Positions 3,948 to 63,832 of a stretch of DNA of 64,000 nucleotides are shown here, piece after piece. Origin of the DNA: a virus (Duplodnaviria > Caudoviricetes); the IMG/VR virus record IMGVR_UViG_3300021400_000046, positions 64,001 to 128,000 of that record. One strand, 5' to 3'. The stretch's first letter is position 1; each line of letters begins with the position of its first letter. A program made the translations under genes and the position numbers. Under the pieces are notes generated by a model. The model worked only from the letters and a program-made list of their open reading frames with translations. It was not told the origin of the DNA and made no database searches.

Positions 3948-5273
3948 ATGAAGGAACGAGGAATGAATAAGTATCAAAGAATTAAGAAAAGAATAGAGCG
4001 CGACAAACTGCGCAAACAAATGAAATTACTTGAACGCAATATTTTATATGGTGATTTTGATGGTATTATTACTTATCAAAATTTTGTTGAAGCATTGAAG
4101 AAATGTAAAGTTGGAGTAAATTGGAAAGGCAGTGTTCAAGTATATACAGAAAAGCCTATTAGTGAAATATCAAAAGCGAGAAAGAAACTAATAAAGCGTG
4201 AACTGCCTAAAATAACAAGTTTCAAAAAGATAGTAATTTATGAGCGTGGTAAAGCTCGAATAATTGTACCAATAAAGATTCAAGATAGGATGATTCAAAG
4301 AGTAATTTGCGACAACGCGCTTGTTCCAATGTTTAAGGATTATCTTATCTATGATAATGGAGCAAGCACTAAGGGTAAGGGCGTAGAATTTGCAAGAGCA
4401 AGATTAGAAACTCATATTAGAAAGGCACAAAAGAAATACGGATCAGATAACCTATACGCTCTTGTGTTTGATTTTAAGAATTTCTTTGGAAGCATCCCAC
4501 ATAAAACTTGCCTTAATGTATTATATGAGAAGTTTATAGATAGCAGTCTTATAAATATCATTATGGATATTATTAAATCATATAGCCGAAATGATATAAA
4601 TACTTTAAGCGACAAAGAATTGCGAGATAGAAAACTCAAATTATTAGAAGGGAATAACCTCGCAGGCATTTGCCTTGGAAGTCAAATATCGCAGATAATG
4701 GCTCTTGTTGTTCCAAATAAATTGGATCATTTTGTAAAAGACCAATGTGGTATGAAACATTATATGCGGTATATGGATGATGGAATTATCTTGTTTAATG
4801 ATAAGAAAGCATTAAAGAAACTATACTCGCGCATGAAAACAGTTTGTGAAAGTCTTGGTTTAACATTTAACAGTAAGAAAACGCGGATTGTGAAAATGAC
4901 AAAGGGCATTACATTTATGAAGATCAAGTACAAAATAGTTGGAGACAGGCTTGTGAAAAAACTTTCTCGATCAAGTATAGTGCGAATGAGAAGAAAGCTA
5001 AAGAAGTTCAGAAAACTCGTTGACAATGGCAAAATGAAATTAGATGATGTATACAATTCTATCCAATCTTGGGTTGCTCATTCAAAACGTGCAATGTCGT
5101 ATAAAACAAGGAATGAAATGCTTGAATTATATGATAAACTGTTTGATGGTTATAAAATGACAAAGAGATATTACTATTTGGTAGAAAATAAGATAAGAGG
5201 GAGGAATGTACCTGATGAAGTATTACAAGATGATAAGTGGTACGAATATCGTTGGGGTAGTTACGCAGCTTAG
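3948..5273 (+). CDS. DGR reverse transcriptase
   Basis: RT motifs: KARII, DRMIQR, FDFKNFF, LGSQISQ (DGR-type SQ), YMRYMDD; basic C-terminal thumb. Confidence 0.96.
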   Translation: MKERGMNKYQRIKKRIERDKLRKQMKLLERNILYGDFDGIITYQNFVEALKKCKVGVNWKGSVQVYTEKPISEISKARKKLIKRELPKITSFKKIVIYERGKARIIVPIKIQDRMIQRVICDNALVPMFKDYLIYDNGASTKGKGVEFARARLETHIRKAQKKYGSDNLYALVFDFKNFFGSIPHKTCLNVLYEKFIDSSLINIIMDIIKSYSRNDINTLSDKELRDRKLKLLEGNNLAGICLGSQISQIMALVVPNKLDHFVKDQCGMKHYMRYMDDGIILFNDKKALKKLYSRMKTVCESLGLTFNSKKTRIVKMTKGITFMKIKYKIVGDRLVKKLSRSSIVRMRRKLKKFRKLVDNGKMKLDDVYNSIQSWVAHSKRAMSYKTRNEMLELYDKLFDGYKMTKRYYYLVENKIRGRNVPDEVLQDDKWYEYRWGSYAA

Positions 5274-5982
5274 TTTTGTAAGATTCCGACCAAAACATAA
5301 GACACTAAATAATTGTGAAATAAGTGTCGCTCAATATGTTCTTTATGACGGAAATTTATATAGGGATAGTTGGCTGTTCAAATTATCTGGTTCTGAGGGG
5401 CTTGAATATTCAGAGGTTAAGATCGTTGAAATAGGCGAAGAAGAATATAACACACTTATTGCAGCATTTGAAAAGAATGAAGAAATTACTGAAACCACGC
5501 AAGAGGAAGAAGTGCAAATCCCAGAAGAACAGGTAGAAGATAACCCAACCATTGATTTTGTAAAAGCATCAAAACTCGCAGAGATTAGTCATGCGTGTAA
5601 TGTAATTATCACTAATGGTTTTGATATTGTATTAAGTGATGGCGAAACACATCATTTTTCACTAACTACACAAGACCAATTAAACCTAATTACATTATCT
5701 TCAATGGCTGCGAGTGGAGAAACTATGATCCCATATCACGCAGATGGCGAACTCTGTAAGTTCTATTCACCGGAAGATATAACTTCAATTGTTAATTATG
5801 CAACACAGTTCAAAACATATCATGTGTCTTATCACAATGCGCTTAAATTATATGTTGAGTCGCTTGATGATTTAGCACAGATTGGAGGTATTGAATACGG
5901 AATTGACATTCCGATTGAATTTCAATCAGATGTATTGAAAGTGTTGAATGGGAGAAGTGAAGAAAATGAAACAAATCCATAA
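5215..5982 (+). CDS. DUF4376-like phage tail-associated protein
   Basis: KLAEIS..CN..ITNGFD...HFSLTTQDQLNL...PYHADGELCKFY pattern; RBS favours ATG 5215; overlaps RT end. Confidence 0.6.
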   Translation: MKYYKMISGTNIVGVVTQLSFVRFRPKHKTLNNCEISVAQYVLYDGNLYRDSWLFKLSGSEGLEYSEVKIVEIGEEEYNTLIAAFEKNEEITETTQEEEVQIPEEQVEDNPTIDFVKASKLAEISHACNVIITNGFDIVLSDGETHHFSLTTQDQLNLITLSSMAASGETMIPYHADGELCKFYSPEDITSIVNYATQFKTYHVSYHNALKLYVESLDDLAQIGGIEYGIDIPIEFQSDVLKVLNGRSEENETNP

Positions 5983-6415
5983 AAGAATGTTTTTATTTCT
6001 TCTTGGTTTCATGGCTTACATTACTATCGAGGTTTGTTTCCGTGGTTATTCATATCCGCTAATGGGGCTTTGTGGCGGTTTCGCATTACTTATCATGGAT
6101 CAAATTAATAACAAAATTTCTTGGGACTTTGATTTGCTATTGCAAGGGCTAATCGGCTCTGCACTAATAACATCGTTTGAGTTTATTATTGGAGAACTAT
6201 TCTTACATGGGTATCTTCCTGTTATGTGGGACTATTCGCATTCTTTTCTTAATTATAAGGGTATTGTCTGTCTGCCCTTTAGTTTATTATGGTTCGTTCT
6301 TTCTATTGGCGCGATTTTCTGTGCCGATGCAATAAACTATTATTTTTTTAATGAATTACCTGTTCCGCACTACAAAGTGTTTGGAAAAACTATCTTCTCG
6401 TTCAAGCAAAAATAA
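5966..6415 (+). CDS. Small membrane protein (putative ABC-permease/CmpB-like family common in phages)
   Basis: Four hydrophobic segments; IEV.FRGYS, FEFIIG, MWDYS...NYKG..CLPFS motifs. Confidence 0.65.
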   Translation: MKQIHKRMFLFLLGFMAYITIEVCFRGYSYPLMGLCGGFALLIMDQINNKISWDFDLLLQGLIGSALITSFEFIIGELFLHGYLPVMWDYSHSFLNYKGIVCLPFSLLWFVLSIGAIFCADAINYYFFNELPVPHYKVFGKTIFSFKQK

Positions 6416-30458: not shown

Positions 30459-31031
30459 TTATCCCTCCTGTACAGGCATTTCATTTCCCCAAACATCGAA
30501 ACCTGGATGCTCATAACGGGCATATAATTCAAGTTTTTTCAAGTTTGGATAAAGGCGATTGATAATTTCGTATGAAAGCTCTGGCTTTTGGCTATGCCGC
30601 CTAACTTGTTCTGTAAAAACAGTATGTATTTTACCGCGTTCATCTGGTGCAACTGGAATAAGTTTACCTTTGTACATATAAAGCAGATACTCATGCCCAA
30701 ATCTAACCGTGAATGCTGCTGGAATACCAGTGACTTTATTCCAGACCATCCTTGCATGAAGTTTATAACCCAATTCTTCGGCTATTTGTTGTGCTTCAAA
30801 TAGGTATTTATCAATAGTCCAAAGAAACAAAATTGAGTTCTCCCCCGGAGCAAGGCTTGTAGCTTGCCGCAAATGATCTTTGATTTCTTCAAGTGAACAC
30901 ACCGGGTAATCAAGCTCTGTGCCACTGCTTTGTGGTCTAACACTTTTCTTCCCGCCTTTTGCTTGCCTCCAAGGTGGATCGGCAAGAATTAGATCATATT
31001 GCCTATCTGTTTTCCAAATATCAACTCGCAT
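30459..31031 (-). CDS. MT-A70-family adenine methyltransferase
   Basis: ADPPW, LFLW, WNK, HSQKPE, LELYAR, WGNE. Confidence 0.9.
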   Translation of the reverse strand: MRVDIWKTDRQYDLILADPPWRQAKGGKKSVRPQSSGTELDYPVCSLEEIKDHLRQATSLAPGENSILFLWTIDKYLFEAQQIAEELGYKLHARMVWNKVTGIPAAFTVRFGHEYLLYMYKGKLIPVAPDERGKIHTVFTEQVRRHSQKPELSYEIINRLYPNLKKLELYARYEHPGFDVWGNEMPVQEG

Positions 31032-31266: not shown

Positions 31267-32066
31267 TGTAATGCAATCCTTTTAACTGTGTTATATACTT
31301 CTTCCCATGAATTAACACGAATCATGTCATTTAATTCTGCATTATAACTTTTATTGTGTGGTGCAGACATTAAAATTTTGTGATAATCGCCGCCTTCTAA
31401 ATTATGAGTCCCATCATCAATCAAGAAATCAGCTTTAATCATTTGCTTATTATGTGCTACAATAATTTTTCGCCAATCAATAAACGGGAAGTATCTCTTA
31501 ATAATAGCTTCATATTTTGGTTTTACATTTCTGTAATCTGTAGAAGTGCAAAGATAAACATTAAAACCATCATTCACCATCATTTCCAAATACTTGATCG
31601 CCCCCGGTATCGGCTCAATCGTGTACCAGAAATCATCATCATGCAGCGGTTCATAAACCTGTTCTTTTGTTAGAGAAGGAAAGAATTTAGATACATCCCA
31701 ATCTGTAATATCCTCATGCTTGACGAATGTGCCATATCGTTCATTAAGCCATCTACACCAAGCACCGCACAAATCTTCAATCGTATCATCAATATCAACC
31801 AAGACGGTAAAATCTTCTGGTTTCTTACCATCGTTATCAATCCACTTTCCCATATCAAGATAACCTTGCACATATGAAGTAGCCACAGTATAAATTCTTT
31901 GCCCGCAGCAATTACATATTCCATATATCTTTTCGCCGTCATATTCATAGTGGAACATATTAGAGCCGCATTCACACGGGTTCTTCTGACCTTCAATAAA
32001 GAACTGCCACAGTTCAGTCCCGTTATCATGGTATAATGTTTTCATCTTTGTATCACATCTTTTCAC
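31263..32066 (-). CDS. 5'(3')-deoxyribonucleotidase (HAD) with N-terminal Cys domain
   Basis: VDIDDT, LIDD...NL, APHN. Confidence 0.8.
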   Translation of the reverse strand: MKRCDTKMKTLYHDNGTELWQFFIEGQKNPCECGSNMFHYEYDGEKIYGICNCCGQRIYTVATSYVQGYLDMGKWIDNDGKKPEDFTVLVDIDDTIEDLCGAWCRWLNERYGTFVKHEDITDWDVSKFFPSLTKEQVYEPLHDDDFWYTIEPIPGAIKYLEMMVNDGFNVYLCTSTDYRNVKPKYEAIIKRYFPFIDWRKIIVAHNKQMIKADFLIDDGTHNLEGGDYHKILMSAPHNKSYNAELNDMIRVNSWEEVYNTVKRIALQ

Positions 32067-44703: not shown

Positions 44704-45126
44704 ATGACTGAACAAGAATACAAACACATTCGCAATCTTGCTTGGAGTATTCTCATTGAAATTGGCGCTAACTCTTTACCAGTTCAGCTTGATACAATAA
44801 CAAACATCTATCAGATAAGCGTTAATGTAGATAACTACTATAACAAAGCTATTCAGATTTCTTCCTGCTTGTTGTCTATATTTGGCTTAAATAAAGATTT
44901 GTCTGAAATGCTTGCTATCAGGTTGCTATCTCCGATGGTTGTGTTAAAAGAAATTGGTGTTCGTTCTGGTAAAGATATTGCAAAGTTGACAGGTCTGCCG
45001 ATTTTTGTTGCAAATAAGAGATACGAGCGCCTTCAGATGCTTGTAAAGCGTAACGCATTTTGCACTTCACGACTTGAACAGATTGTGTTAAAGCAATTTG
45101 AACCGTGGATTATTGCTAACCGTTAA
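44704..45126 (+). CDS. Degenerate ImmA-like protein lacking HExxH
   Basis: N- and C-termini resemble ImmA-family proteins (AW..L....SLPV; RLLSP..VL....IAKL); catalytic core absent. Confidence 0.55.
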   Translation: MTEQEYKHIRNLAWSILIEIGANSLPVQLDTITNIYQISVNVDNYYNKAIQISSCLLSIFGLNKDLSEMLAIRLLSPMVVLKEIGVRSGKDIAKLTGLPIFVANKRYERLQMLVKRNAFCTSRLEQIVLKQFEPWIIANR

Positions 45127-45824
45127 GCCTTTGTTGTGCAATATCAAAATATGTATTATCTATCTCTATTCCAATGAAATTGCGATTTAAGTTTTTGCAG
45201 GCCATACCTGTACTTCCAATACCCATAAATGGGTCTAATATAATTTGTCCTTCACGAGATGAATTATCAATCAATATCTCCATTAACTCAATTGGCTTTT
45301 CTGTATCATGAAGATTTTTACCAGAAGCATCTTTGCTCTTTTTGTTTGGAATAGAAAGAATATCACTTGTGCCACAATGGTTAATTTGAACACCTTTCCC
45401 TTTTCGGAAGAACAGAATATACTCATATTGCGACATATAAAACCTTCCCATAAGTTTATTGCCTTTATTCCAAATAAGACTTTTGATAAAATGAAAACCA
45501 ACGCCAGTAAATGTGTTAAGCATATTTATCAAATTCACATGATTTGACATGACATAACAATGACTTCCATCCTTTAACAAACGGAAAAACTCAGGCGCAT
45601 ATTCTGAGCAATCAATACTGTTGTGTTCAAATATCTTTCCTTGCATTGTTGCTTTTGTTGCCATCATACCACCAGTGTTACCAGCGCAGCCTTTCTTTGT
45701 AATTGGGTAAGGAGGATCAGTAACAATCAGATCAATACTTTTATCAGGAAGTTTCTTTAATTCAGTAATACAATCTCCACAAATAAGATTTTGCCAGGGG
45801 GGTGATGGTAGTATCTATATTCAA
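45116..45824 (-). CDS. N6-adenine DNA methyltransferase, out of frame by one C in a C6 tract (G6 at 45797-45802 on +)
   Basis: CGDC...IVTDPPY upstream of the tracked ORF; H.TEKP, LDPFMG.G; RBS plus TTG 45824 joins only with C5. Confidence 0.8.
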
Positions 45825-45838
45825 TATTTCTCCTATGG

Positions 45839-46807
45839 TTAGCCAGCAGAAATCAAGGCGTTTCCGCAAGTAATTCTATCGCTATCTTCTTCAAGACTCG
45901 GCACAAATACAATCACTTGCCAACCTTCTTCTACAAGTGGCTTTTCAAATTCCCTGTAAACATCGTAATCTGTATAAGTTGTAGTAACATCAAACCCATT
46001 TTCAACAGCAGACTTAGTTTCATGAATAGGTGTAATCTTGACAATAAACTTATTCTTATCAAACAATTCAGAAAGCCGCTTTGCGTCAAGAATAGTCTTT
46101 GACGTTACTGCAAAATTCAAAGTATACTTTCTGCCAACCGGCATAGGAAGTTTTGAAGCAAGTTCTGAAATTTCTTCAAGACTTAAACTCATGCCATTAA
46201 ACTGTTCATTTCGCTGGTTATCATCTGTGCTATTAATACTAAACTGCAATCCAGCTTCGCCATTATAAGAATTGTTTTTAATATCGCACCACTTTAAGAT
46301 AAACTGTTCAAGGTTTCCGTTAGATTTTGGCAACATCGTTGACACAACAGGATGAATTGTATCTGCTTTAATGTAATGATTTACAAGCGGCCTAAGACAA
46401 TACTCGGCAAATATCAAAACATTCTTATTGAATGTTGGTTCTCCCATTCTTGCGAAATGGACATTAAATCTTTCTGTATGCTGTACATCTTCACTTTTGA
46501 CAATCGTAGCAATTTGTTCCCATAGATCATATAAACTAACATTACCATAAAAACCATATTTCGGGCAATCGCAGAATTTACATTTCATAGGGCAACCATG
46601 CTGTGTGCTAATTGTTGCTACCCACTTTTCTGACAAATCCACGTCAGTATTCATTACCCCCGAAATTTCTTTAGTTAGTCCGAGAAAATCAGCTTTAATA
46701 TTGTTTTCCTTGCCGTAATCGCCAACGGTCAGAAATTCAAGACGATTATCTTTATCAACAAAAATCTTCCCTGTATGTGTTTTAACGATCTCCATAGTAA
46801 ACCTCAA
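45839..46807 (-). CDS. RlmN/Cfr-like radical SAM protein
   Basis: ISTQ.GCPMKCKFC, MGEP, VST, C-terminal ITCG. Confidence 0.8.
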   Translation of the reverse strand: MRFTMEIVKTHTGKIFVDKDNRLEFLTVGDYGKENNIKADFLGLTKEISGVMNTDVDLSEKWVATISTQHGCPMKCKFCDCPKYGFYGNVSLYDLWEQIATIVKSEDVQHTERFNVHFARMGEPTFNKNVLIFAEYCLRPLVNHYIKADTIHPVVSTMLPKSNGNLEQFILKWCDIKNNSYNGEAGLQFSINSTDDNQRNEQFNGMSLSLEEISELASKLPMPVGRKYTLNFAVTSKTILDAKRLSELFDKNKFIVKITPIHETKSAVENGFDVTTTYTDYDVYREFEKPLVEEGWQVIVFVPSLEEDSDRITCGNALISAG

Positions 46808-48905: not shown

Positions 48906-50678
48906 TTATGGCTCAATTAGTTTGTAGCCATTCCGAAAACATTTCTGTCCAATAGTTGTTGTAATTGTTCCTATTGTTTGCTGATCCAGCCTTACATTGC
49001 TATTGTAATCATCATATACAATTACATTTCTCCCCCGGATTTAGCGCTGTTTTCATGTTCAGTGTTGTTAATCCATTCAAACAAACGATTTAATGCAATT
49101 TCAAAAGCACCAATTCCAGAGAAATAACTGCCGACTTTCAAATCATTAAATAAGTACGGCATTGCAACATAAAGGTTTTTTAATATGTAAAATAGAACAT
49201 CGGTCACTATTGAATTACCGGCCTGTTTATATAATTGCGAATCACTAACAACCTCATTTAGTGCAGCTTCAATACTCTGTTTTAGATCGTCATTTGGAAA
49301 CATTGTGATTATTCGCTTTGCGGTTTCTCTACTTCCAGTTTTCGCCGCATAAAAATCTTCATCAGTAAAACCCATCAATCGCCAGCATTCTTTTGGTGTT
49401 AATTTTCTAATTCTGTAACCATGCTCAGAATTTTCAATCACTCGTTTATCACCCCCGCATTGATAGTTCGGATTGTTCCTACTACATCGTCATTAAACAA
49501 TCTCAAACCTTCATCGGTTCTTTGTTCGCACACAATATATTCTTTATCCATAACTACAACCATAGGTTGAAGATTACCCCCCTGACAAGTGTGCAAGGCA
49601 GGAGCAATACCGTCAACACTATAAACCCTTCCTTGATTTGGATTATCTCTTGTTTTTGTCGGGCAAACATTCCCAATCCATATAATCTCACTCATTATTT
49701 TTATCCATAGGCTCAATAACAAATATCATTTGGTTAGATGCTGTTAGTGTTGGACATATTTCTCCCCCGACTGAACACGGCCACGCCGAGTCTTAGACGT
49801 TGGATAGCTGAAATCTGCGATACCTGGAACAGCACACTCAATATAACCTGTTTTTGTAGCCTGTCTTATTCTTATTTTCATAATTTTCAACGATCATCAC
49901 ATGGTTTTTTATACCTAAACCAGCACATAGAGTTGGTGATAACCCCCGGATTCGTAGACAATATTTGATTGATGTTTACCCGTCCCTTTTTCTATGTGGC
50001 CGATTACTTTGATCTTCTTTTCTTTCATACGTTTTCACAACAATTTTTGGTGGGTCTTTGTAACATGAAGATGGGATAGTTGACATTAACCCATTTACTG
50101 AATAAATCCAACCTTGTTGTCCCCCGAACCTCGATGGATCAGCCGGTCAATCTCATTCTTTTTGTTCATCATTTGTAACCACCATAACTAAAATCTTTGG
50201 AGGGTCTTTATAGTGTGTTGATTTGATAGTACACATTGAACACCCCCGGAAGTATCATACACTTCTTGATTTTGATGTATCTTACCGGAGTCTGGTATCA
50301 ATCTCCCAAGAACTTTTGTTTCCAATATTATTTTACCCTCTCAATTACTAATTGCCTTCTATGTGTTCGCAAGAAGTATTCAAATGTAATTCCCTTGTGA
50401 TAGTTCGCATCAATACAATATGAATACTTGTCACACAATCCATACTTGAAATCTTTGTGTTCTTCGGAATCCCCCGGACGGAGAGATTATTTCTCTTTAC
50501 GTCTGGCATTTAATAACTCCATTCATCGGTTGATTACCGAACACTTTGTAATCTCTTGCGAGAAGCGTGTTTGCTATATCTATTTCTCTATCAAACTTAG
50601 TGCATTGCTCTTAGAATAGCCCTGTTTTTATACCTGAACCATATCCCATTGGTGTCTGTCTAAGCTCGATCTCCCACC
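48906..50678 (-). other. Array of ~10 C5-MTase TRD-like modules with G5/G6 frame switches
   Basis: Manual translation of the - strand; C5 runs on + at 49032, 49452, 49764, 49943, 50121, 50243, 50471; C6 at 49577. Confidence 0.8.
49022..49441 (-). CDS. C5-cytosine MTase small chain: motifs IX, X, then I
   Basis: RKLTPKECWRLMGF (IX), QLYKQAGNSIV (X), SYFSGIGAFE (I). Confidence 0.88.
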   Translation of the reverse strand: MIENSEHGYRIRKLTPKECWRLMGFTDEDFYAAKTGSRETAKRIITMFPNDDLKQSIEAALNEVVSDSQLYKQAGNSIVTDVLFYILKNLYVAMPYLFNDLKVGSYFSGIGAFEIALNRLFEWINNTEHENSAKSGGEM

Positions 50679-51400
50679 TGCCTAATGGCGTTAGAGTTCT
50701 TCTTATCTAACTTGCCGGAGTCAATCAGTTCATCAATAAGCTGTTTTGCCTTATCGGTATTTATGTAGTATTTTTCATCAACTTCTGTTTCCAAAACATC
50801 TTTTAAGCATTTGTCACTCTCAAAGCCTTCGGGGAATGAGAACAGGCCATTATCAAACTCTTTAAGAATAATAATCAAGAATACACGTTCTCTATTTTGC
50901 GGGACACCAAAATCCTTTGAATTTAGCACTTTGTAGTATGTGTTATAACCGTACTCATGTAGCTCGTCAATGAACATCTGGAATGTATCTTTGAATTTCT
51001 TACCTACAATGTTTTTGACGTTTTCATAGATCCCCCACTTAGGTTTATTTGCTCGAATAACTCTAAGCCATTCAACAAGCAACGAGCTTCTTGACTTATC
51101 AAGATTCGTGCTTCCACATTTCGGACATCTATTACGGACAGAATAATGAACTGTCAAAGGATTATATGTATGACCACAATCATTACACTTCCATCTGCTG
51201 CCCACTTGGTTTCCTGCCACACTGAAATCTTGGCATGGACTTCCACCACAGATCATATTAAATGGCTGCAAAGCGTGTTCATCAACAAGTGTAATGTCTC
51301 CAAGGTTTTTTGATGGATCAGCACCATGCACAGCACAATAACTTTTAACTGCGAACTTATCAAACTCACAGAAGTTTACCAATTCATACGACTTATTCAA
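50660..51400 (-). CDS. C5-cytosine MTase catalytic chain (motifs II-VIII, Zn-ribbon insert, no motif I)
   Basis: FCEFDK, GDI, GGSPCQDFS, ENVK, PQNRERVF. Confidence 0.92.
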   Translation of the reverse strand: MNKSYELVNFCEFDKFAVKSYCAVHGADPSKNLGDITLVDEHALQPFNMICGGSPCQDFSVAGNQVGSRWKCNDCGHTYNPLTVHYSVRNRCPKCGSTNLDKSRSSLLVEWLRVIRANKPKWGIYENVKNIVGKKFKDTFQMFIDELHEYGYNTYYKVLNSKDFGVPQNRERVFLIIILKEFDNGLFSFPEGFESDKCLKDVLETEVDEKYYINTDKAKQLIDELIDSGKLDKKNSNAIRQVGDRA

Positions 51401-51715: not shown

Positions 51716-53689
51716 TTATTTCACCTGACCTCTCAATTCGATATACTCATTTTCACTTAATATTGTTGTTCCAAATTTTTCAGCAGCCTTGTTTTTCGAG
51801 CTACCAGAAGTCTTATCATTTGTTATCAGATAATTCGTCTTTGCAGAAACGCCAGAAACAACAATGCCGCCATTTTCTTCAATATCAGCGACAAGCGCAT
51901 CACGATTCTTGAACACTTCCAATTTGCCAGTAATACAAAACGTCTTACCGGAAAGAGTGCTATTTGTAGATACCTTCTTTGGTTCTTCAACATTCAAAAT
52001 CGAAACCAATGGCACAATATCATTGATGTTCTCTCTGACATAATTATTGATACAATCGCTCGTTGTCTTGCCAATGGCAGGCATAACGCTCCAATCGCAG
52101 TTGCTCAAAGCAAGATCAATAAATGTCTGGAAGATGTTACCAGTTGTATGTGAAGTGCAATACTCTGTGATTGTTTTAGCAGCAGACTTACCAATCGTAG
52201 GAATACCAATGGCAACAATCACATTTTGTAGTTTGCAATCTCTACTCTGTTCAATTGCGTCAATCAAATGATCTACAACACTTTTACCAAAGCCGTATTC
52301 TTTAATGATTTTATCTCTGTGTTCATTCAGATGATACAAACTTTCAAAGTCTGTAACATAACCTAAGTCCATAAGAGACTTTAATCGTTCTTCTGAGATA
52401 CCAACGATATTCATGCCTTCTCTGGACGCAAAATTAGATATTTTGTCATGTTGAATCGCAGAGCAATGCTTGTTTGTGCAATACAGCATTTCACGCCCAT
52501 TTTCGCACTTTATAACAGCTTTTTCGCCGCAATTTGGACATAAAATGGGGATTTTATAACTACCGCTCCGAGTGAGGTTCTGAGTGACCTTTGGAATGAT
52601 CTGATTGGCCTTAATTACCGTAATTGTATCTCCAATTCCAAGCTGTAACTCTTTTACGATACTTACATTATTAAGTGTCGCACGGTTGACAGTTGTACCA
52701 TCAATCTCTACAGGATCAAAAACTGCAACAGGATTGATAAGCCCGGTTCTACTCACATTCCATTCAATATCAAGCAAAGTAGTTTCGTTTTCTTCCTGAT
52801 AAAATTTGAACGCCAAAGAATGCTTTGGATGATGTGCTGTAACTCCAAGGCTCTTACAATACGCAATATCATCAAACATACCTACAACACCATCAATCGG
52901 GATTTTAAGCCGCTCACAATCAGACTTTACACTGTCAATAGCGATCTTAGAACCGACACGATAGGGGACTACATCAAAACCAAACGTTTGCAGTAGTAGC
53001 ATTGCCTGAATATTGCTTTCAACCTTATAAACACTTGGACATTCATATAACTTCCAAGCAATAAACTTTACATTTCTGCTTTTAACAATCTCTGGATTAA
53101 GCTGCCGGACAGTGCCACTAACAAGATTGCGTGGGTTTTTGTATTCTGTTCCTTCTCGTTCCTTGATCTGCTCGAAGTCAGAGTATGTAATAATACACTC
53201 GCCGTCCACAATTACCGTACCAGACGCAGGAATGGTCAGAGGTACATTAGAAAACACTTTAGCGTTATGTGTAATATCTTCACCAATCTCGCCGTTACCA
53301 CGGCTCTCGGCTCTGACAAGCCTACCGTCTTGATAAGTCAAAGAACAAGTCAGGCCATCCAACTTACCCATAAGGATAAATGGCTTGTTTTCAAAATAGG
53401 AAATAAACTCTGTTTCGTCTGTGGTTTTTGCAAGTGAAAGAAGCTGATGGTTGTGTTTAACCTTTTGAAGCTGGCTAACGCTTTCATATCCAACTGTATT
53501 TGTTGGCGAATTTGACATTACAATGCCGGTCTTTTCTTCAAGCCGCTCCAATTCATCAAACAGAGCATCGTATTCTCGATCAGAAATTAGGCTCTTATTC
53601 TGGTTATAATAAGCATCCCTGCATCTATTGAGCTGTTCTACAAGCTCTGTCATTCTGTTTCTGTCTTTGTTAAACCCCATAATTGTCAT
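51716..53689 (-). CDS. ligA: NAD-dependent DNA ligase
   Basis: KLDG, SRGNG..GEDIT, NPRN, DGVV, AFKF, RATL, Zn finger, BRCT. Confidence 0.95.
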   Translation of the reverse strand: MTIMGFNKDRNRMTELVEQLNRCRDAYYNQNKSLISDREYDALFDELERLEEKTGIVMSNSPTNTVGYESVSQLQKVKHNHQLLSLAKTTDETEFISYFENKPFILMGKLDGLTCSLTYQDGRLVRAESRGNGEIGEDITHNAKVFSNVPLTIPASGTVIVDGECIITYSDFEQIKEREGTEYKNPRNLVSGTVRQLNPEIVKSRNVKFIAWKLYECPSVYKVESNIQAMLLLQTFGFDVVPYRVGSKIAIDSVKSDCERLKIPIDGVVGMFDDIAYCKSLGVTAHHPKHSLAFKFYQEENETTLLDIEWNVSRTGLINPVAVFDPVEIDGTTVNRATLNNVSIVKELQLGIGDTITVIKANQIIPKVTQNLTRSGSYKIPILCPNCGEKAVIKCENGREMLYCTNKHCSAIQHDKISNFASREGMNIVGISEERLKSLMDLGYVTDFESLYHLNEHRDKIIKEYGFGKSVVDHLIDAIEQSRDCKLQNVIVAIGIPTIGKSAAKTITEYCTSHTTGNIFQTFIDLALSNCDWSVMPAIGKTTSDCINNYVRENINDIVPLVSILNVEEPKKVSTNSTLSGKTFCITGKLEVFKNRDALVADIEENGGIVVSGVSAKTNYLITNDKTSGSSKNKAAEKFGTTILSENEYIELRGQVK

Positions 53690-62249: not shown

Positions 62250-62495
62250 TTACACGCAGATTGTACCATATAAACCACAGTTTGTCAAGGTAGTTTTCAC
62301 AACATATTCTAATCTTTTAAGAAATCGTCTATATCTTGTTCTGTAGTAGTTCCAATATGTTTCTCCCCCCGACTCATAGGCATCAAGCCGTTCAAGAGCT
62401 TTGTGCAACTCATAGAAAAAACTTTTGCTTGTTGGATTACCTTCAGAACTCGCAATCCTGGTTTCAATAATGCCAATTAGAGTTTTAGTTGTCAT
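62250..62495 (-). CDS. Hypothetical protein
   Basis: ORF coupled to glyA. Confidence 0.5.
   Translation of the reverse strand: MTTKTLIGIIETRIASSEGNPTSKSFFYELHKALERLDAYESGGETYWNYYRTRYRRFLKRLEYVVKTTLTNCGLYGTICV
62260..62304 (-). promoter_or_regulatory. Phage promoter type A (copy 4), upstream of the tRNA region
   Basis: TGTTGTGAAAACTACC-TTGACA-17-TACAAT. Confidence 0.85.
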
Positions 62496-63832
62496 TGATA
62501 GTTCTCCTTAATGATACTGTCAATTTGATCTGCAATATTTACGAAAGATTGTTCTGTAAATCCTTTTGTAGTCATGGCTGCGGTTCCAATACGAATACCA
62601 CTCGCCTCAGTTGGCTTACGTTTTTCTCCTGGTACACAATTCTTGTTTAGTGTAATACCATATTCATCAAGCAAATCCTGCACCATTGCACCAGTAACAT
62701 TCGGTAGCGTTTTAGAGAGATCAATTAAGAATAAATGATTATCAGTGCCGCCAGTTACAACATGATAACCAAGCCTGATAAATTCATTACACATTGCTTT
62801 GCAATTCTTTACGACTTGATGGATATATTTCTTGTATTCTTCTGTACACGCTTCTTCTGCTGCAACAGCTTTACCAGCAATAATGTTTTGCAATGCGCCG
62901 CCTTGAATACCAGGGAATACGGCACTATCAATCTTCTTAGCCAACTCTGGCTTACAGAAAATCATACCTCCTCGTGGGCCTCGTAAAGTCTTATGAGTAG
63001 TGGTCGTGATAATATCTGCAATGCCAAATGGGGAAGGGTGATCTTCGGCAGCTATTAGGCCAGCAATGTGCGCCATATCAACCATAAAATATGGGTTATA
63101 ATCTTCTGGTTCTACATATACATTGTAAACTCCTGCATTTTTCGCTTCATAGAAGTCTCGCGTAATTCTCCCACGAGCATTATCAATGATCTGTCTGATA
63201 CGCTGAAAATCAATAACTCTGGAATAAGCAGATGCACCGGCAAGAACCAGTTTCGGCTTATAACGCAAAATCTTTTCTTCAATATCCGCGTAATCAATAA
63301 ACCCGTTCTGATCTACTCCATAGAAAACCATCTTATAAGTTTTGCCTGAAAAGTTCACAGGAGAACCGTGCGTTAAATGTCCACCGTTTTCAAGGCTCAT
63401 GGCAAGAATTGTGTCACCAGGTTTCAAAACTGCCATATAAGCCGCCATGTTCGCGTTAGAGCCACTGTGCGGCTGCACATTCACATGATAATCAGTGTTG
63501 AATACTTCGCGCCAATTGTTGCAACAGTATTCTTCAAGCTCGTCGATAATCTGGCATCCACCATAATATCGGCCTTTGTTGCCGGTAGTTCTAACTGCTG
63601 GGTAGCCTTCAGAATACTTGTTCATCATGCAAGAACCAACTGCTTGCAGTACGTTATTACTTACAAAATTCTCACTTGCAATCAGTTCAATAACACTTTC
63701 TTGTCTATGGTATTCAGCGTTTACCAACTGCAATGCGTAGCTGATCGGCTTATGTCTATTTCTTGCACTCATAAGTTTATTATAAATATCCTCTGCTTCT
63801 TCACTTGCAAATTTCTGGTTGCTTCTTTTCAT
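62492..63832 (-). CDS. glyA: Serine hydroxymethyltransferase
   Basis: LIASEN, NKYSEGYP, NVQPHSG, DMAH, TTTHKTLRGPRGG. Confidence 0.96.
   Translation of the reverse strand: MKRSNQKFASEEAEDIYNKLMSARNRHKPISYALQLVNAEYHRQESVIELIASENFVSNNVLQAVGSCMMNKYSEGYPAVRTTGNKGRYYGGCQIIDELEEYCCNNWREVFNTDYHVNVQPHSGSNANMAAYMAVLKPGDTILAMSLENGGHLTHGSPVNFSGKTYKMVFYGVDQNGFIDYADIEEKILRYKPKLVLAGASAYSRVIDFQRIRQIIDNARGRITRDFYEAKNAGVYNVYVEPEDYNPYFMVDMAHIAGLIAAEDHPSPFGIADIITTTTHKTLRGPRGGMIFCKPELAKKIDSAVFPGIQGGALQNIIAGKAVAAEEACTEEYKKYIHQVVKNCKAMCNEFIRLGYHVVTGGTDNHLFLIDLSKTLPNVTGAMVQDLLDEYGITLNKNCVPGEKRKPTEASGIRIGTAAMTTKGFTEQSFVNIADQIDSIIKENYQ

Follow-up and report, generated by a model that had tools for sequence, protein, structure and literature searches.

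A putative split and permuted phage C5-cytosine methyltransferase with target recognition modules that may be switched one by one through short G tracts

This study concerns a C5-cytosine methyltransferase (C5-MTase) locus of a ~150-kb rumen phage (Duplodnaviria; Caudoviricetes). The locus lies on the minus strand, from 51400 to 48906, of a 64,000-nt stretch of DNA (the window) that comprises bases 64001-128000 of the single virus record IMGVR_UViG_3300021400_000046 in IMG/VR (149,631 bp, 38% G+C). Our analysis suggested that it encodes a split, unusually permuted and multispecific phage C5-MTase whose target recognition domains (TRDs) are carried by individually phase-variable mini-genes, a reading to which we assign a probability of roughly 0.6.

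According to this reading, the catalytic core would be made as two chains, an N-core with motifs II-VIII and a C-core with motifs IX and X followed by motif I. Both would be produced regardless of the states of the tracts, the C-core probably from its own GTG. Two TRDs would be fusable to the N-core through the frame chosen at a first tract, T1, at which one length would lead to an early stop, one to fusion with TRD 1 and one into a linker frame that enters TRD 2. Another TRD would be fusable behind the C-core, and the remaining TRDs would be free mini-genes, ~60-85 codons long, each opening with a start codon of its own. Slipped-strand replication that adds or removes one G would toggle one module and leave the others untouched. 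In this lineage a run of five Gs (G5) would be the OFF ground state and G6 the ON state, and in the window the module M8 alone would be ON. Because the modules would toggle independently, a population would contain variants that differ in their sets of methylation specificities, some with none at all.

Results

The catalytic core is encoded as two chains in a permuted order

Two open reading frames (ORFs) on the minus strand together contained the complete C5-MTase motif set: I (FxGxG), IV (PCQ), VI (ENV), VIII (QxRxR), IX and X (GNS). The N-core ORF (50660-51400, 246 aa) matched PF00145 of Pfam at 1.2e-43 and gave additional zinc-ribbon matches. It began ~ten residues ahead of motif II, contained motif IV (PCQ), a zinc-ribbon insert, motif VI (ENV) and motif VIII (QNRER), and ended at a stop codon 13 nt past T1. 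The C-core ORF (49022-49441, 139 aa, GTG start) matched PF00145 at 2.3e-10 and carried motif IX, motif X and then, at its C-terminal end, motif I. The chains were split within the variable region, with the motifs up to VIII on one and IX-X on the other. Both ORFs were called as genes in 10 independent assemblies, the N-core at 246 aa. A first-pass annotation of this DNA, made from its letters alone, had described a core in two pieces, and the separate ORFs and independent gene calls bore this out.

Along the locus the motifs were ordered II-VIII, TRDs, IX, X, I, with the break point between motifs I and II. Intact homologues in the protein database (P0067, P0095, P0105, P0074, P0055 and P0058) showed the identical order within one chain, indicating that the family natively has motif I behind motif X and that the window copy was not rearranged in this respect.

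The zinc-ribbon insert of the N-core (CxxC...CxxC; window 51100-51200, minus strand; residues ~69-102) lies between motifs IV and VI. It matches Pfam HypA and Zn_ribbon_8, is kept in relatives and is unusual in a C5-MTase. Many N-core relatives (P0001-P0016 and others) carried a LAGLIDADG homing endonuclease intein (PF14890, PF13403, PF14528, PF07591), and the window copy had none.

TRD modules are broken at G tracts

About ten TRD-like units were found between and behind the cores: TRD 1 and TRD 2 after the N-core, mini-genes M3-M8, and M9 after motif I. They were homologous to the tandem TRDs inside fused multi-TRD relatives, and their earlier identification as TRDs was thus correct. Six module start sites (ATG or TTG) were located, at 50509, 50325, 50172/50175, 50028, 49881 and 49695, in line with the claim that the modules open with their own start codons and overlap the previous module.

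On the plus strand, C5 runs started at 49032, 49452, 49764, 49943, 50121, 50243 and 50471, and a C6 run occupied 49577-49582. Run and frame maps confirmed that each of the seven C5 runs coincided with a change of the minus-strand stop-free frame at a TRD module. The upstream half of each broken unit lay in one frame and the downstream half one base back. Addition of one G merged the halves; the junction aligned to intact homologues in six of the seven units, and the seventh break (50471) was closed by the natural G6 allele of strain L081. The prediction that a single G restores the frame every time therefore held, as did the prediction that the one module with G6 is intact (ORF 49438-49722; called as 85 aa). 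With all tracts closed, the modules remained separate overlapping ORFs, each next module restarting in the first frame; they were mini-ORFs and not one fused gene, as had been proposed.

CGGGGG occurred 13 times in the window versus 4.0 +/- 2.0 expected, and seven of the 13 were inside 1.45 kb at the locus, consistent with the earlier impression of few copies elsewhere. Of the CGGGGG signature itself the G run stood and the leading C did not: the C is incidental; it ends a Ser or Ala codon, and the runs of T1 and M8 follow an A. Outside the locus, 3 of the 153 Gly-Gly dipeptides in long ORFs were written with a run of at least five Gs, and GGG was the rarest Gly codon in the genome.

All modules lie on the minus strand. 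T1 (50673-50678), which would select the early stop, TRD 1 or TRD 2, is an interrupted GGTGGG in the window. The distal part of TRD 1 (50628-50672) would be read only when T1 has seven letters and is out of frame in the window; it matched the ends of P0002, P0008 and P0071. TRD 2 (50497-50650; homologues P0037, P0006 and P0013) occupies the third frame and contains the in-frame TAA (50611-50613) noted in the first-pass annotation. M3 (50328-50509) has an ATG at 50509 with GGAG 8 nt upstream, G5 at 50471-50475 and a stop at 50328, and its TRD part matched P0098 and P0095. M4 (50153-50325) has a TTG at 50325 and G5 at 50243-50247; its junction aligned to P0017 at 65% identity, and the relatives L001 and L008 have an in-frame G6. 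M5 (49976-50175) opens with ATG ATG (50175/50172) and has G5 at 50121-50125, M6 (49838-50028) has an ATG at 50028 and G5 at 49943-49947, and M7 (49688-49881) has an ATG at 49881 and G5 at 49764-49768. M7 was 69-77% identical to the same TRD in the fused P0067 (residues 363-400). The G5 state would leave M3 to M7 OFF.

M8 (49438-49722; ATG 49695), predicted to be ON by its G6 at 49577-49582, consists of one full TRD and the first half of a second, and its stop overlaps the C-core start (GTGA). Members of the M8 family have Met at the exact position of Lys or Asn in fused enzymes (five lineages). The second TRD of M8 is broken by the G5 at 49452-49456, 10 nt before the C-core GTG. M9 (48906-49036), the TRD-like module behind motif I, has G5 at 49032-49036 and would be OFF; its junction aligned to P0087, and L012 has an in-frame G6.

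Judging from the sequence, the G5 at 49452 probably serves as the Shine-Dalgarno sequence of the C-core. It is GGAGG in strain L087 and also G5 in the relatives L008, L009, L010 and L012; in L011 the open frame runs on through the C-core, giving a fused 242-aa ORF. A Shine-Dalgarno role of G5 for every downstream half was judged by eye and rejected as a general rule, because it fitted M4 (ATG 6 nt on) and the C-core (GTG 10 nt on) and failed at M3, M5, M6 and M7. Two other candidate switches were also rejected. The G6 at 62365 is in frame in an unrelated 81-aa ORF adjoining the serine hydroxymethyltransferase gene, and A5 at the module boundaries, a possible second switch, was no commoner than expected in an AT-rich genome.

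Tract length differs between near-identical strains

The exact 139-aa C-core was present on at least 24 contigs, and near-identical DNA occurred in public runs of 11 studies (cattle, goat and other gut samples; 2013-2025). For the strain comparison we used ten contigs with the identical C-core (L080-L089), taken from Logan and ENA assemblies that came from different studies and assemblers. In contigs from three independent runs, G5 recurred at each of the seven sites.

Frame-closing G6 or G7 alleles were found at five tracts: T1, M3, M6, M7 and M8. T1 was GGTGGG in the window, G6 in seven strains and G7 in two (L083 and L089); the G7 allele fused the core to TRD 1 in a 257-aa ORF (TRD 1 ON), in accordance with the claim that GGTGGG lacks one letter. 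M3 was G5 in eight strains, G6 in L081 (ON) and G7 in L087. M6 was G5 in four strains and G6 in L089 (ON), and the module was absent from the other five. M7 was G5 in nine strains and G6 in L082 (ON). M8 was G6 in four strains including the window (ON), G5 in five and G8 in one. L084 and L086 had no tract in frame. In total there were at least eight length changes in ~50 tract bases versus one 1-nt indel in ~2,450 other bases; the sole small indel outside a tract in 2.5 kb was a 1-nt deletion in the N-core of L085, matching window 51102. The expectation of variable tract length was thus met in the DNA of near-identical strains, and more widely in relatives.

These data also settled whether the breaks are homopolymer errors of sequencing or assembly, with all true tracts being G6. 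In its favour, every one of the seven breaks falls at a homopolymer that lacks one G. The ten assemblies, however, repeated the same G5 sites and had G6 at others, and all small indels bar one fell in tracts. More than 10 other G5 runs sit in frame in long intact ORFs of the genome, including one in the identical 12-nt context TCCGGGGGAGAA at 30842; others are at 31601 and 51032. We put the chance of this explanation at practically nil; it is refuted. The first-pass annotation had listed such an error as an outcome that would overturn its reading.

Larger indels removed whole modules, indicating that the modules behave as cassettes. M5 was present in eight strains and missing from L081 and L083 by a 150-nt deletion between repeats shared by M4 and M5. 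For M6, a cassette in five of the ten strains, the 139-nt indel is bounded by the start codons of M6 and M7.

Relatives keep tracts at the same Gly-Gly sites

In IMG/VR, 178 stretches encoded a relative of the core, and 79 loci were kept for comparison. The split layout was found in ~30 of the 79 (core 55-80% identical). Split-layout loci had G5 to G11 tracts in the TRD region, whereas loci with a single long ORF had none. The first ORF of the clade was at most 336 aa, versus single ORFs of 430-629 aa in tract-less relatives, and the database proteins of the clade terminated after TRD 1 or after TRD 2, indicating that T1 is a three-way frame selector.

The tracts were always at a Gly-Gly of the TRDs, which tract-less fused relatives write with mixed codons. 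The conservation of tract sites with varying length, for which the first-pass annotation had proposed a comparison of homologous loci, was therefore seen across ~30 relatives. In one TRD family the tract was at the first Gly-Gly in L017, L018, L020, L022 and L036 and at the second in the window, L012 and L024, and the fused homologue L033 writes the Gly-Gly of that family as GGTGGC; these alternative sites point to repeated acquisition of tracts. The near-identical L023 and L024 differed solely in tract length, with G6 versus G11 at T1. The relative L001 contained a stand-alone 62-codon module with an in-frame G6. A DNA search of the phage collection gave only short conserved-motif matches.

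We resolved the frame of tracts by aligning their junctions to intact homologues. Among 107 frame-resolved tracts, 37 were in frame, 48 were one short and 22 were one long; G5 was one short in 33 of 36 cases and G6 was in frame in 19 of 23. These counts bear on the possibility that the G5 tracts are recoded, being read through by -1 ribosomal slippage or polymerase stuttering so that all modules are made at a low constant level. The identical -1 shift would be needed at all G5 tracts of the window, and purifying selection on the cores extended to L084 and L086, both of which lack an in-frame tract; moreover, a run of at least four Gs lets the P-site tRNA-Gly re-pair one base back. Against this, the tracts of relatives needed +1, -1 or 0, which no single rule fits, and ON alleles exist in the DNA itself. 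Relative to the upstream codons, the runs fell in every one of the three phases, none of them made an X XXY YYZ heptamer, and the 70 nt downstream of seven tracts folded no better than shuffles (z -0.9 to +1.0). G5 is also far below the length of known transcriptional slippage sites. Recoding therefore appeared very improbable, and the suggestion of -1 frameshifting or transcriptional slippage in the first-pass annotation was not upheld.

In complete genomes of relatives, runs of at least seven Gs were on the coding strand only and clustered in this gene. Such runs outside the gene were recorded at G002:C1:24676-25634 and 118727, at G001:C1:24965-26514, at 8232 of L002 and at 8214 of L005; one of them is a G7 within the GGSPC motif IV of a second, downstream C5-MTase. 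From their sequence, these runs may mark more phase-variable phage genes.

Both halves of the modules bear the mark of coding selection

We counted mismatches by codon position in DNA-level alignments to relatives, a procedure that favours no frame. Counts at positions 1/2/3 were 26/23/108 for the upstream halves and 165/69/303 for the downstream halves (p < 1e-19). M4 gave 13/5/51 upstream and 23/9/44 downstream of its tract, the downstream half of M5 gave 17/4/55, and M9 gave 45/26/121. The third-position excess was present in both halves, each in its own frame, which excluded a long-dead pseudogene. Among the ten strains the cores showed 29 synonymous to 3 non-synonymous changes (N-core 19:3, C-core 10:0). 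No nonsense change was found in either half of M3-M9 among ~70 variant alleles.

M8 is modelled at the TRD site of the two-chain core

Complex prediction, which the first-pass annotation had proposed, was carried out for M8 together with the two cores; each of the three chains was given an alignment, and there were three runs and three controls. The interface score ipSAE (interaction prediction score from aligned errors) of M8 against the two cores was 0.86 in three runs, versus 0.00 for the best control. In the calibration, which holds only roughly here, 58 of 80 solved complexes reached this value, as did 2 of 110 mismatched pairs. Contacts agreed between the runs to at least 78%, and the predicted local distance difference test score (pLDDT) was at least 62 for the partner and 87 for the other chains. 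M8 residues 24-38 and 43-51 contacted motif VIII (N-core 167-171) and motif IX (C-core 8-14), and this contact site is the TRD position in monomeric enzymes. A search of M8 against the sequences of solved structures gave no match at E <= 1. Complementation is known for C5-MTases that are split, naturally or artificially, within the variable region (PMC3404938, PMC5944983).

The model suggests that TRD peptides may dock on the two cores in trans and would thereby confer specificity. A more specific proposal can be made tentatively, and we give it somewhat less than an even chance: free TRD proteins of 60-85 residues would plug non-covalently into the two-chain core to form a three-component C5-MTase, with an exchangeable specificity subunit like HsdS of Type I systems, each subunit being toggled by a homopolymer and traded as a cassette between phages.

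The same modules could instead be a silent cassette store, in which only the core-fused TRDs are active and the free modules are an archive to be recombined next to the cores. The module-sized indels of 150 nt (M4/M5 repeats) and 139 nt (M6) in near-identical strains fit such a store, and so does the fusion of neighbouring modules in L008 and of modules to the C-core in L011 and L072. An unexpressed archive, however, would not need the tract that each module keeps. The modules also have their own start codons, with Met in the M8 family where fused enzymes have Lys or Asn, and free M8 was modelled at the normal TRD site. We consider a silent store improbable.

Evidence for a slow or locked array

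Several observations weigh against a freely switching array of functional TRD genes. The first is the length of the tracts. Classical contingency tracts usually have at least seven repeats. The G5 and G6 tracts of the window are below this length (relatives reach G7 to G11), so switching may be slow, and the array may be slow or partly locked in this lineage. ON was found in only 9 of 82 strain-by-tract states. M4 and M5 were G5 in all carriers, except that the M4 run of L085 was interrupted (AGGGG); the tract before the C-core was G5 in nine strains and GGAGG in L087; and M9 was G5 in all ten. The comparison rests on contigs, in which minor within-sample alleles are invisible. In L085 a broken N-core accompanied the interrupted M4 tract, and either this locus is decaying or its assembly is of lower quality.

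Selection on the TRD modules also spoke on this side. Their changes among the ten strains were ~1:1 synonymous to non-synonymous (35:38), and they appear less constrained than the cores; the ratio is partly due to a swapped-in diverged allele that spans M5-M7 in five strains. TRD 2 had two independent nonsense mutations, namely the TAA of the window, which is shared with L086 and is TCA in eight of the ten strains, and another at 50548 in L082. It also has Val at a conserved Gly in the window. TRD 2 is decaying, which fits the finding that T1 had the length that reads TRD 2 in no strain; unused modules thus do decay. As for the complex model, M8 took the same site as the TRD of monomeric enzymes, and its pass may therefore reflect likeness to solved monomeric C5-MTases. 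The score supported the proposed docking, yet the pass is not proof that a free TRD binds, and we know of no free-standing TRD protein that has been shown to work for any C5-MTase.

On this evidence the array could be locked or decaying: the family would be, or have been, a poly-G switchboard, but in this lineage the tracts would have shrunk to a stable G5 sink, most modules would in effect be off for good and starting to decay, and the cores would be used with one or two modules. G5 was indeed the commonest length and nearly always one short, four tracts never closed in the ten strains, and the state of TRD 2, the damage in L085 and the substitution ratio of the modules point the same way. 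The strain and relative data argued otherwise. Frame-closing alleles occurred at five tracts in just 10 strains, M3-M9 were free of nonsense changes, and both halves of the modules showed a strong third-position bias against relatives. The strong constraint on the cores would be purposeless without TRDs. We therefore regard a locked array as unlikely, and retain the reading of individually phase-variable TRD mini-genes.

Gene neighbourhood

Neighbouring ORFs, all on the minus strand (62492-63832, 45116-45667, 45839-46807 and 51716-53689), were examined. One-carbon, S-adenosylmethionine (SAM) and DNA-modification functions abound in this block, whose products include a serine hydroxymethyltransferase, an N6/N4 DNA methylase, a radical-SAM-like protein and an NAD-dependent DNA ligase. 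In L082 and L084-L089, a 123-aa ORF and a 353-aa SAM synthetase gene lie at about 4938-6375 (~window 48000), ~1 kb downstream of the C-core. This insertion is present in seven of the ten strains; the window, L081 and L083 are without it.

Discussion

The individual traits of this locus have precedents in several known systems. M.SPRI, M.Phi3TI, M.Rho11sI and M.H2I of Bacillus phages are multispecific C5-MTases (Trautner et al. 1996 EMBO J 15:1434, cited in PMC12707154). The window gene resembles them in being a phage-borne orphan C5-MTase with several short tandem TRDs between motifs VIII and IX, and its fused relatives have exactly the Bacillus-phage layout. The several TRDs of those enzymes presumably let a single catalytic core guard against several restriction systems. 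All of them are in one polypeptide and always expressed, whereas in the window each TRD has its own G tract and forms either a separate mini-ORF or a frame-selected tail. The window core also differs in being made of two chains and in having motif I behind motif X.

Two-chain C5-MTases are known in M.AquI and M.EcoHK31I, and fragment complementation has been described for M.SssI and M.MpeI (PMC3404938, PMC5944983). As in M.AquI and M.EcoHK31I, whose halves assemble into an active enzyme, the window locus has one chain up to motif VIII and one chain with IX-X, cut in the variable region. In the M.AquI type, however, the TRD is attached to one of the two chains and switch tracts are not known, whereas in the window the TRD would be a third, exchangeable chain. 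Natural permuted C5-MTases include M.BssHII, M.Alw26I, M2.Eco31I, M.Esp3I and M2.BsaI (PMC5944983). The window locus shares with the M.BssHII type the placement of motif X ahead of motif I in gene order. All natural permutants known in 2018 were cut in the variable region, with IX-X before I-VIII (PMC5944983); unlike these, the window enzyme is cut between motifs I and II, so that motif I alone is displaced.

Phase-variable methyltransferases and phasevarions have been described for Type I, III and IIG genes of Haemophilus, Neisseria, Helicobacter and Campylobacter (PMC12707154, PMC5149525, PMC2823697). As in these simple-sequence-repeat contingency loci, a homopolymer in the coding sequence sets the frame at the window locus, and length polymorphism between near-identical genomes is confined to the tract. 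T1 resembles the switching of C-terminal sequence described in Helicobacter canadensis (PMC2823697). Bacterial phase-variable methyltransferases usually have one tract that switches the whole enzyme, whereas the phage cluster has up to ten tracts, one per specificity module, that are only 5-6 long. As in Campylobacter phage poly-G, the phage itself and not its host would diversify the phenotype. Hypermutable poly-G tracts in receptor-binding genes of Campylobacter phages were reportedly described by Sorensen et al. in 2021; that system targets host recognition and has no modular array, whereas the window locus concerns DNA modification.

Full-text literature searches turned up no phage described as having tract-gated TRD mini-genes. 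The searches returned phase-variable bacterial methyltransferases, multispecific Bacillus-phage enzymes, split or permuted C5-MTases and Campylobacter-phage poly-G, none of them with tract-gated TRDs. To these the window adds a ten-strain series in which single tracts change between G5 and G6, the gain and loss of cassettes, and a docking model that passed for a free TRD whose frame is naturally closed.

The proposed system is widespread in ~150-kb rumen and gut phages, where automatic annotation shows it as a row of broken or hypothetical ORFs. Anti-restriction bet-hedging is a plausible purpose: provided that switching is frequent enough to matter, as we infer, the benefit would lie in a hedge between two kinds of host, those that restrict unmethylated DNA and those that restrict methylated DNA. 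If the proposed reading is true, a TRD of a C5-MTase can act as a separate small protein, which would be useful for engineering programmable cytosine methylation. These phages would then run a combinatorial, heritable and reversible epigenetic wardrobe from one core and individually switchable recognition modules, and their populations would keep variants protected against different restriction systems together with unmethylated variants that escape methyl-dependent restriction.

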